Assembly: GCA_044343545.1 (NCBI GenBank)
Contig: JAWBZR010000012.1
Location: forward strand, 1-22,587
Reading direction: 5' to 3'
Length of the DNA: 22,587 bases
Source: Candidatus Aenigmatarchaeota archaeon
Lineage (GTDB): Archaea > Aenigmatarchaeota > Aenigmatarchaeia > CG10238-14
Shown here in pieces: positions 9,001 through 12,000 of the stretch. Within the stretch, counting starts at the first letter, position 1. Every line of letters starts with the position of its first letter. The position numbers were made by a program.

Positions 9001-12000
9001 CGACTTCTATAAAGCCTAACTCCTTCAACTTCTTTCTTAACAAATCTATTACTTTTGACCTTGTTAGAAATATTTCCTTAACTTTTGGATTCATTAGCAA
9101 ATCGACATATCTCTGCCTATATCTAATTTCCACGTCTTTTAGACCGAACCATTGAGGTGGCAAGGGTCTTAAAGCTTTCGCGAGGACTTCAAACTTTTTT
9201 ACCCAAATACTCAACTCTCCTTTTTGAGTTTTAAATATGAAACCTTCTACGCCTAAAAAATCGCCAGTATCTATGAATTTTAAAATCTTGTAATTTTTTT
9301 CTGTGAGAGTATCGAACGTAAAAAATAATTGAATTTTTCCCGTAAAATCTTCTAAATCCATAAATGTTGTTTTGCCATGACTTCTTATGCTTCTTATTCT
9401 GCCTGCTATTCTAACTAATTCATATTCCAATTTTTCTCCAGGCTGAATCTTGCTGAACCTCATTTGGAGTTGAGAAATGTTGTGAGTTCTTTCATATTTT
9501 GTCGTTTTGAAAGGATATATTCCCATCTTTTCCAATTCTTCCAAGTCTTTCTTTCTTTTTTCCATTATTTGCTTCAACGGTAATTCTTTCATAAATTTAA
9601 TATTTGATTTAAAACATTAAATTAATTTTAATTAGTCTTCCCAAAAGTATTTTATCCTTTTCCTGCCAAAACCCAAAAATTTTACCATTACAAATCCTGC
9701 TATCATTCCACCTAAATGTCCATAGTGAGATATAAAAGGTTGAACGCCTGAAATGGCGTAAACAATCTGCAACACGGCCATTATTATAACAAAAATGTAG
9801 GCAGGCACAGGAAGCAATAAATTGACATAGATTATATCTCTTGGAAACATCATTCCAAACGCCGTTAAAATAGCAAAAATGGCTCCTGATGCTCCTATAA
9901 GAGGAATAGAATTTACTCCATTAATGAGAATGTGAAATATGCCTGAAAACATCCCGGCAATCGTATAAAAGATAAAAAACCTTGCTCTTCCCATTTCACT
10001 TTCTATTCTGGGCCCGAAAACTAGCAACGAAAACATATTTAAAAAAAGATGCTCGAAGCTTCCATGAACATACATGAAAGTAAAAAATTGCCAATACTTT
10101 CCGTTATAAATTGCTTCCGTAGGTGTGAGAGCGAGAGCATAAAAGACTGTTGGAATTATGGTTAAAAAGAATAGGAGTACATTTGTTGCTAATATCAAAT
10201 ATGTGACCTTCACTTTTGATTTTTTTCTTGACACCTTAACCACTTTTCCAAATCTTTTATTATTTTTCTATTTGTAGTTATCAAATCAAGTTTTTTTGCT
10301 TCACTCAAAGTATACCAACCAAAATCTTCTAATTCTTCATTAATAGTCACTTTACCGCAAGCCGTGCAAATATATGCTAATACTATCACATGTCTTTCTT
10401 TATCATTATATTGAGAAGTGAAATAAAAAGAATAAGCATTTACCAGTTTTGCGGTTTTTAACTCCAAACTTACTTCTTCTTTCAACCCCCTCTTCAAAGC
10501 TTCTATTAGATCTTCCTTGTATTCTACGGCTTCTCCCACAAATCCCCACTTACCTGGTTCGAACCTGCTTTTTCTATTTCTCTTCACAAAAAGAAACTTG
10601 TCACCTCTTTTAACAATTGCTAAGACTCCAACCTTTTGTTCTTTCATCATAAAAATCATCTATGATGGGCCGGGCGCGATTCGAACACGCGACCTACGGT
10701 TTTTACGCTCAGCGGCCTTATAAGACCGTTGCTTTAGTTGCCGACAAAGGCACTAACCAGGCTGAGCTACCGGCCCAATGAAAAAATTTAAATTACAAAA
10801 ATTAATTATTTTATTTTGAAAAGTCGCGATATTAATTATTTATCTTTGTTAAGTTATGATTCATTAAAGATCATAATTAATTCCTAATCAGAATGTATTA
10901 AAGGGGGTGTATCAAGATGACAAATGCAACTTTAGCTCAATTAGGTGGGCAACCTGTCCTTATATTACCTGAAGGTACTTTAAGGACAAGAGGAAGAAGT
11001 GCACAAGAAAATAATATAGCCGCTGCAAAAGCGGTGGCTGATGCGGTTAGAACTACACTTGGGCCAAAAGGAATGGATAAAATGCTTGTAGATAGTATAG
11101 GTGATATAGTAATTACAAACGATGGTGTAACAATTCTAGAAGAAATGGAAATAGAACATCCTGCAGCAAAAATGCTCGTCGAAGTTGCAAAAACGCAAAA
11201 CGAGGAAGTAGGAGATGGAACGACAACAGCCGCAGTAATAGCAGGTGAATTGCTGAGCAAGGCAGGTGAATTGCTAGAGCAGAATATACATCCCACTGTT
11301 ATCATAAGAGGTTATAATTTAGCACTGAAAAAAGCCATAGAAATACTTGAAGGTATGGCAAAACCAATTTCAATAAAAGACAAGGAAATGCTAAAAAAGA
11401 TAGCGAGAACAAGTATGTCTGGCAAGTCTGGCTATGGTAACTTGGATAAAGTGGGTGACCTTGTAGTTGAAGCAGTGACACTAGTTGCAGAAGAAAAAAA
11501 TGGAAAAATAGTTATAGATAGAGAAAGCATAAAAAGAGAGAAAAAACAGGGAGGTTCTTCGGAAGATACCGAACTCATAAGGGGCGTAATAATAGATAAG
11601 GAAGTTGTTCATCCAGGAATGCCGAAAAGCGTGAAAGAAGCTAAGATAGCTCTCGTGGATGCAGCTTTAGAAGTAAAGGAAACTGAAACTGATGCACAAA
11701 TTCAAATTACAGACCCGTTGAAACTCCAAGCATTTTTAGAGCAAGAAGAAAAGTTGTTAAAAGATATGGTAGAAAAAATAGCCAAATCGGGAGCAAACGT
11801 CTTGTTCTGTCAAAAGGGTATAGATGATGCAGCGCAGCATTACTTGGCAAAGAAAGGAATTTTAGCAGCGAGAAGGGTGAAAAAGTCTGACATGGAAGCT
11901 TTGGCTAAAGCAACTGGAGCAAGAATAGTAACTAACTTGGATGATCTGGAGCCAAAAGATTTAGGTTATGCAAAATTGGTAGAGGAGATAAAAATAGGAG

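Follow-up and report, generated by a model that had tools for sequence, protein, structure and literature searches.

Comparison of related genes indicates that the anticodon intron of tRNA-Ile(UAU) in this Aenigmatarchaeota genome holds two mutually exclusive folds. One is the splicing fold, an HBh' motif at position 38/39. The other, here called the second fold, has a stem of 3-4 bp below the anticodon, then a link of 2 nt and a helix of 6-7 bp formed with the D-arm; in many relatives ACA comes next. We consider this fold very probably real. It was found described nowhere in the literature searched, which consisted mostly of papers open without subscription; it is the new part of this work, and the decoding route served by the tRNA is known. 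Our preferred reading, given a probability of roughly 45%, is that Cbf5 makes pseudouridine at position 34 (Psi34) on the intron-bearing precursor.

The window, meaning the whole stretch of 22,587 nucleotides that was analysed, lies on contig C4 and includes the following parts of the gene.

10666..10776, minus strand: pre-tRNA-Ile(UAU) gene from G1 to A73, 111 nt, in three exons (10776-10753, 10733-10718, and 10700-10666)
10734..10752, minus strand: intron 1, 19 nt, at position 22/23; bulge-helix-bulge motif with 4/4 central pairs, an inner helix of 3 bp, and an outer helix of 1 bp
10701..10717, minus strand: intron 2, 17 nt, at position 38/39; relaxed HBh' motif with the central helix at U33-U36, an inner helix of 2 bp, and no outer helix
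10718..10724, minus strand: anticodon loop C32-A38 with U34 at 10722, from the boundary enumeration and the spliced cloverleaf

The gene, which an earlier note had reported on the minus strand at 10664-10777, is real. Its first base, G1, is at 10776 and its last, A73, at 10666; it encodes no CCA and sits between a NUDIX gene and a thermosome gene. The statement that tRNA finders miss it holds for ARAGORN without the intron option, but with -i0,300 the program returns tRNA-Ile(tat) at 10664-10777. The scan of the whole window with Rfam at E<=5 gave no match at this locus. Removal of the two introns leaves, as had been claimed, tRNA-Ile(UAU): a normal 75-nt cloverleaf with U34-A35-U36, called Ile(tat) by ARAGORN. 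Farther along the window, a type IV pilus-like cluster (pilin, ATPase, and two membrane platform genes) occupies 12666-19000.

The intron boundaries were set by enumerating bulge-helix-bulge candidates, the check that the earlier note had named as missing. For intron 1, the boundary at 22/23 is the only one of six listed candidates that restores the D-stem. For intron 2, the central pairs are 4/4 at 38/39 versus 1/4 at 37/38. The canonical 37/38 site, where the 17-nt insert had been placed before, was discarded, as its central helix (32-35) has this single pair once the boundaries are set so that the loop is restored. The 38/39 site is backed by base patterns in relatives. Among 78 distinct genes, 35 fit 38/39, all with A after A37 and with a variable base before position 39 (A in 27, U in 7, and G in 1). 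Another 29 fit 37/38 with the opposite pattern, in which the base after A37 varies and the base before 39 is constant; the splice site is unclear in 12, and two have no insert. In the genomes G062, G121, and G136, the whole intron is 13 nt long; like it, the first 13 nt after A37 in our gene (10706-10718) make up a weak canonical splice motif. As a splice route in our gene, this embedded 37/38 motif (10718-10706) was rejected because an 11-nt loop would remain. The 17-nt intron of the family may correspond to a 13-nt intron extended by 4 nt with a slide of 1 nt.

Intron 1 is variable even inside the genus, and intron 2 is nearly constant. The claim that the gene and both inserts are common to the family is correct for the gene, which is a true Ile-UAU gene in 19/22 family genomes, but not for the 5' insert, which by eye falls within the anticodon stem of G003, G019, G020, and G021. 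In G019 and G021, a 21-nt intron is at 37/38. The DNA search behind that claim holds for the 14/22 nearly full-length matches; overall, 21/22 genomes match, two of them to query position 108. Metatranscriptomes of the same study (n=3) contained 0, 0, and 16 partial reads, those from other organisms. Several tRNAs elsewhere in the genome carry non-canonical inserts and are mislabelled by ARAGORN, at C11:45652, C11:54516, C13:1127, C13:2319, C15:1785, C15:1977, and C18:34170. By eye, these tRNAs are Asp, Gln, Gly, Leu, Glu, and Val.

A single EndA endonuclease of 177 aa is encoded (C1:59840-60373), and the genome yielded no second EndA subunit. Its insert matches the loop of the Nanoarchaeum equitans and ARMAN-2 enzymes, and such a loop is tied to disrupted tRNA genes in DPANN in the available part of PMC5829648. 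With bulge-helix-bulge or relaxed motifs and an endonuclease with this specific loop, the introns fall among the non-canonical introns cut by a broad-specificity EndA.

AUA is the third commonest codon in the 395 long frames of this genome (8968/156,836 codons, 5.7%) and accounts for 59% of Ile codons. TiaS_FLD was found neither in this genome (0/1) nor in the genomes of its class (0/301), which are incomplete bins, and all four archaeal controls were positive (4/4); TiaS_TCKD was found in 0/5 genomes tested. The lack of TiaS pointed out earlier is thereby upheld, but as a class-wide condition and not one specific to the family. The count of two CAU tRNAs, at C4:6174 and C16:15701, also stands. 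A third, weak CAU call has a relaxed score only, and its T-arm is absent in the motif scan. The one in the window is as follows.

6174..6250, minus strand: initiator tRNA-Met(CAU), from the tRNA finders, with initiator marks seen by eye

The CAU tRNA on C16 has a non-Ile acceptor stem, and its intron is complementary to its own anticodon. In this tRNA (C16:15701-15820), the anticodon-complementary stretch is followed, by eye, by D'- and C-like boxes, as in G062, G081, G153, and G160. Judged by this pattern, the intron resembles a C/D guide that would direct Cm34 in cis on elongator Met. Among 121 genomes of the class, an Ile-type acceptor end was seen by eye on no CAU tRNA, with two odd rows on G098:C74 left out. 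TilS was considered as a stand-in for TiaS and rejected, since NcsA/TtuA is the best-scoring assignment for the PF01171 protein.

The two-intron tRNA-Ile(UAU) is the only candidate AUA reader in this TiaS-less genome. The earlier claim that AUA is read via a genomic UAU anticodon and not by the agmatidine-CAU route is supported by the share of AUA among the codons, the class-wide absence of TiaS, and the absence of Ile-type CAU tRNAs. The route is neither new nor an oddity of the family: UAU decoding without TiaS is already published and ordinary for the lineage. UAU genes are present in 31/301 genomes of the class (strict pattern) and in 31/151 genomes of a second DPANN phylum (pattern search). 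According to the available parts of the papers, the same route is used in ARMAN-2/-4/-5 (Fujishima 2011, PMC3239211) and in N. equitans and Korarchaeum cryptofilum (PMC6000648), and it is also treated in PMC3575796. These organisms share with ours the genomic UAU anticodon and the absence of TiaS and of Ile-CAU, and the Ile-UAU genes of ARMAN-2 and Korarchaeum have an intron too. Our gene differs in having two introns, the second at 38/39 and relaxed, whereas that of ARMAN-2 is 25 nt long, at 37/38, and strict (PMC3239211). The available parts of PMC3239211 and PMC6000648, compared here by their descriptions and not by intron sequence, describe neither a second fold nor a route to U34 modification. 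One locus of the class, L220 (G124:C109), carries a tandem pair of non-archaeal-looking UAU tRNAs on a 1.6-kb contig, possibly of mobile-element origin.

The second fold is formed by the following segments.

10714..10727, minus strand: short hairpin, in which the four opening bases of the intron pair with G29-C32 and U33-A38 closes a 4-nt loop starting at U34
10707..10713, minus strand: stretch of intron 2 complementary to the D-arm (+9 to +15 from U34), pairing with G10-C16
10761..10767, minus strand: G10-C16, 5' strand of the D-arm; it belongs to the D-stem once the tRNA is mature and pairs with intron 2 in the precursor
10702..10704, minus strand: +18 to +20 from U34, at the place of CCA in the analogy drawn below; AAA here

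Pairing was counted from U34 in 82 unselected intron-bearing genes, 55 from our class and 27 from the second phylum. They include L199, which is not an Ile gene and was dropped from the 81-gene control comparison. Loci selected on their intron sequence are excluded from both counts and present in the 78-gene splice-site set and in the shuffle set 'all'. Six rows were unparsed (L015, L172, L203, L208, L213, and L218), and G429 is also outside the counts.

The stem is nearly universal: 32 pairs with +5 in 81/82 genes, 31 with +6 in 79/82, and 30 with +7 in 79/82, and pairing fades outward to 52/82 at position 29 and 34/82 at position 28. Position 31 shows four pair types (U-G, C-G, U-A, and A-U), and position 30 two C-G swaps. 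The six-pair helix of +10 to +15 with the D-arm has at least 5/6 pairs in 60/82 genes at the fixed register, against 2-16 genes when the register is slid. Many of the 22 genes that fail are one base off or pair with the D-loop. The partner is the D-arm 5' strand in 31 genes including ours (C13-G in 21, U13-A in 8, and a mismatch in 2) and the D-arm 3' strand in 29, with both-side changes at positions 21, 22, 25, and 26. Over the 82 genes, compensatory pair types are found at positions 13, 21, 22, 25, and 26.

Real introns outscore shuffled introns in 43/51 comparisons. When letters were permuted among genes, which as kin are not independent, the observed pairing was never matched at position 31 and rarely at position 30. 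Base +6 equals base 39 in only 48/81 genes, so this is no plain copy. The stem between the first intron bases and 30-32 is present in 76/81 Ile-UAU genes versus 1/18 other anticodon introns, and the helix at +10 in 70/81 versus 3/18. In one set of controls, 10 of the 18 loci fetched were parsed; the unparsed initiator introns of G080 and G086 have a 3-bp stem by eye, so the control rate for the stem is perhaps nearer 3/20. Among the 80 loci listed from metagenomes, 30 gave new genes, which have the stem in 24/30 and the helix in 22/30. By eye, the unparsed L203 and L218 fit the second fold, and L208 and L213, both from Cbf5-less bins, have a stem displaced by one position and lack the D-arm helix. 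The intron of tRNA-Tyr (C11:46356-46470, L156) has a short complement of the D-stem 3' strand farther downstream and no stem with 30-32.

For our precursor, both the predicted minimum-energy structure and the centroid are the second fold (-47.8 kcal/mol, z -3.27). Without intron 1, its predicted pair probability is 0.91 (37 C) or 0.71 (70 C). For the splice fold, the prediction gives <=0.001, and refolding before splicing is therefore assumed. The earlier note, which misplaced the splice site, did not see this conserved fold, the surprising part of the gene.

The second fold resembles, as a model, the T-arm/acceptor/CCA substrate with U34 in place of U55. We take the pair C32:+5 to correspond to G53-C61 in the usual tRNA numbering, so that U33/U34 would match U54/U55. 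By the same assumption, +5 to +9 presumably stand for the 3' strand of the T-stem, +10 to +16 for the 3' strand of the acceptor stem, and +18 to +20 for CCA. At +18 to +20, some family members have AGA, and ACA is frequent in the second phylum. The AAA of our gene also belongs to the splice helix and to an A run and is therefore uninformative. Of 27 second-phylum genes, 10 have an ACA beginning at +18, and any other start from +12 to +25 is used by at most one; among the matches listed, metagenome genes have it at +18 in 9/30. It is rare in our class (2/55), and 13-nt introns are too short to hold it. Like these two points, the loop of the second fold, with 6 nt and A where T-loops have C56, counts against a role for Cbf5.

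According to the available parts of PMC1616971 and PMC2018633, Cbf5 alone makes Psi55, needs CCA and the PUA domain, favours ACA, and requires a flexible linker that joins the T-stem to the acceptor stem. The geometry of stem-loop, flexible link, helix, and 3' CCA or ACA is the same as in the guide-independent action of Cbf5 on tRNA U55 and on a T-arm-like 23S loop, as far as these papers and PMC6138745 describe it. Unlike those substrates, ours would be a mimic of passing existence that the intron forms about the anticodon, with its 6-nt loop and no C56. In an H/ACA guide, ACA lies about 14 nt from the target pocket. The intron may act like half an H/ACA guide, yet it is not a member of that class: a two-sided pocket, an upper stem with a K-turn, and Nop10 were looked for and not found, and there is no room for an upper stem.

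We propose that the second fold imitates T-stem, acceptor stem, and CCA or, put otherwise, would serve as half of an H/ACA guide whose target lies in cis, U33/U34 taking the places of U54/U55. Stand-alone Cbf5 would turn U34 into pseudouridine before intron removal, and Psi34 would keep Elp3 off U34, helping to separate AUA from AUG. The precursor would then refold into the splicing fold, and the single-subunit L3-loop endonuclease would cut out both introns.

Cbf5 is present in 268/301 genomes of the class, in 96/96 of the best genomes, and in 31/31 intron carriers of the second phylum. Our Cbf5 (C10:5783-6559) has 258 aa with the catalytic motif, lacks about 40 N-terminal residues, and gave no PUA match, its PUA region being divergent. 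With this short, PUA-divergent Cbf5 and AAA instead of ACA, the case for Cbf5 is weaker in this family than in the second phylum. Cbf5 matches with one in-frame TGA occur in G262, G240, G202, and G167, where an intron, recoding, or an error is possible. A search for intronless UAU genes over 301 genomes gave matches in five, among them three true genes; G077 (no tRNA) and two G124 genes (on a 1.6-kb contig and foreign in appearance) were set aside. All three (3/3) are in Cbf5-less bins, from two families, with a chance of 0.0012 if independent. Against Cbf5, a targeted search found intron-bearing UAU genes in 8/33 Cbf5-less bins, which include non-independent kin and are incomplete. In genus g103, Cbf5 is absent in 3/3 bins and the full second fold is kept in 3/3; in the Cbf5-less G230 and G251, the D-arm helix is lost.

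Elp3 is encoded in our genome. It is missing in 37/38 genomes of family f24, and among 11 Cbf5-less bins with a UAU gene it is present in G106 only. Its absence is consistent with U34 no longer having to be protected; G106, which is intronless and Cbf5-less yet has Elp3, does not fit. An NcsA-like thiolase adjoins Elp3 in our genome. The cluster C11:54516-58122 holds a tRNA-Gln(UUG) whose D-loop carries an insert, together with a class I methyltransferase, the NcsA-like thiolase, and Elp3. Judged from this gene content, it is likely a U34 modification locus; NcsA and Elp3 are adjacent in four family genomes. TruA was found in 0/5 and TruD in 1/5 genomes tested, neither of them in this genome. 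Nop10 exceeded the cut-off in 0/5 genomes. It was also not seen behind aIF2-alpha, which we take to be its usual place: the aIF2-alpha-like frame is directly followed by a 272-aa frame (C13:2450-4028), leaving no room. Another pseudouridine synthase is encoded in the window.

3775..4986, plus strand: Pus10 pseudouridine synthase gene, from the gene reading of the window; the rival candidate

Covariation reveals a structure and not its reader, and the second fold might serve another enzyme or U34 modification, through another protein or a trans guide RNA, or might be a timer that delays splicing or charging. This alternative is rather unlikely. Trans H/ACA guides for pre-tRNA-Tyr are known (available part of PMC2651775), an NcsA-like thiolase and Elp3 are encoded here, and the second fold is predicted to outcompete the splice fold. 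A timer, however, needs neither the fixed +10 register nor ACA at +18, and Nop10 was found neither over the cut-off (0/5) nor after aIF2-alpha. It is less probable still that U34, and perhaps U33, is modified on the same second fold by Pus10, which makes Psi54/55 in vivo in Haloferax. Pus10 is present in 19/20 genomes tested, including the Cbf5-less, fold-keeping g103, and, in the available source, it needs no CCA, which suits introns without ACA. Against it, genomes with intronless genes retain Pus10, and the ACA peak at +18 would be of no use to it.

It is quite improbable that the introns are ordinary passengers and U34 is unmodified, with AUA and AUG discriminated by the tRNA body and the ribosome as in Mycoplasma mobile and the pairing left as a relic of the intron's origin. 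The three intronless genes, the many tRNA introns of this genome, and the 22/82 genes that fail the fixed register agree with such a state. It does not account for the compensatory changes that both phyla show at several positions, for two different D-arm partners in one geometry, for the near absence of the pairing in 18 control introns, or for an intron 2 far more conserved than intron 1. The last alternative, in which tRNA-Ile(UAU) is not the AUA reader and an Ile-CAU tRNA and a divergent TiaS lie in the unassembled tenth of the genome, is very improbable. In its favour, the bin is 90.45% complete; against it, TiaS is found in 0/301 class genomes and in 4/4 archaeal controls, Ile-type CAU is absent in 121 genomes, and the UAU gene is kept in 19/22 family genomes.

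Our preferred reading, Psi34 made by Cbf5, has a close parallel in the yeast precursor of tRNA-Ile(UAU), modified to Psi34/Psi36 by Pus1, with the same tRNA and the same decoding problem (available parts of PMC6582322 and PMC9602550). There the intron is proposed to set the U34 modification and to exclude Elongator, and we propose the same here. The available part of PMC6582322 reports that the yeast intron is needed for Psi34, which blocks ncm5U34, that about 40% of the tRNA receives ncm5U34 without it, and that AUG misreading was not detected after its loss; this last result counts against our reading. Unlike in yeast, no TruA/Pus1-family gene was found (0/5), a loop and not a duplex contains the anticodon, and the D-stem is opened by the intron. 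An intron or precursor that directs anticodon modification, as proposed here, is also known from the C/D guide in the intron of archaeal tRNA-Trp (PMC4090602) and from the trans H/ACA guide for Psi35 of pre-tRNA-Tyr (PMC2651775), as far as the available parts describe them. In contrast to these guides, our intron shows no C/D boxes or K-turn and would act in cis, within 13-35 nt.

The issue at stake is how archaea without agmatidine keep a UAU tRNA from reading AUG. The conserved fold names the substrate, the residue, and two candidate enzymes, and the question is thus reducible to an in vitro assay. Tentatively, and at slightly less than even odds, the retargeting of Cbf5 would be protein-free, would solve AUA/AUG discrimination, and would converge, by analogy, on the solution seen in yeast, reached through another enzyme. 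There is a nearly even chance that TiaS-less DPANN keep the Ile-UAU intron because its T-arm/acceptor/ACA mimic retargets Cbf5 to the wobble position. If true, this would give a reason for the retention of a tRNA intron across two phyla of tiny genomes, and for the retention of Cbf5 where Nop10 was not found.
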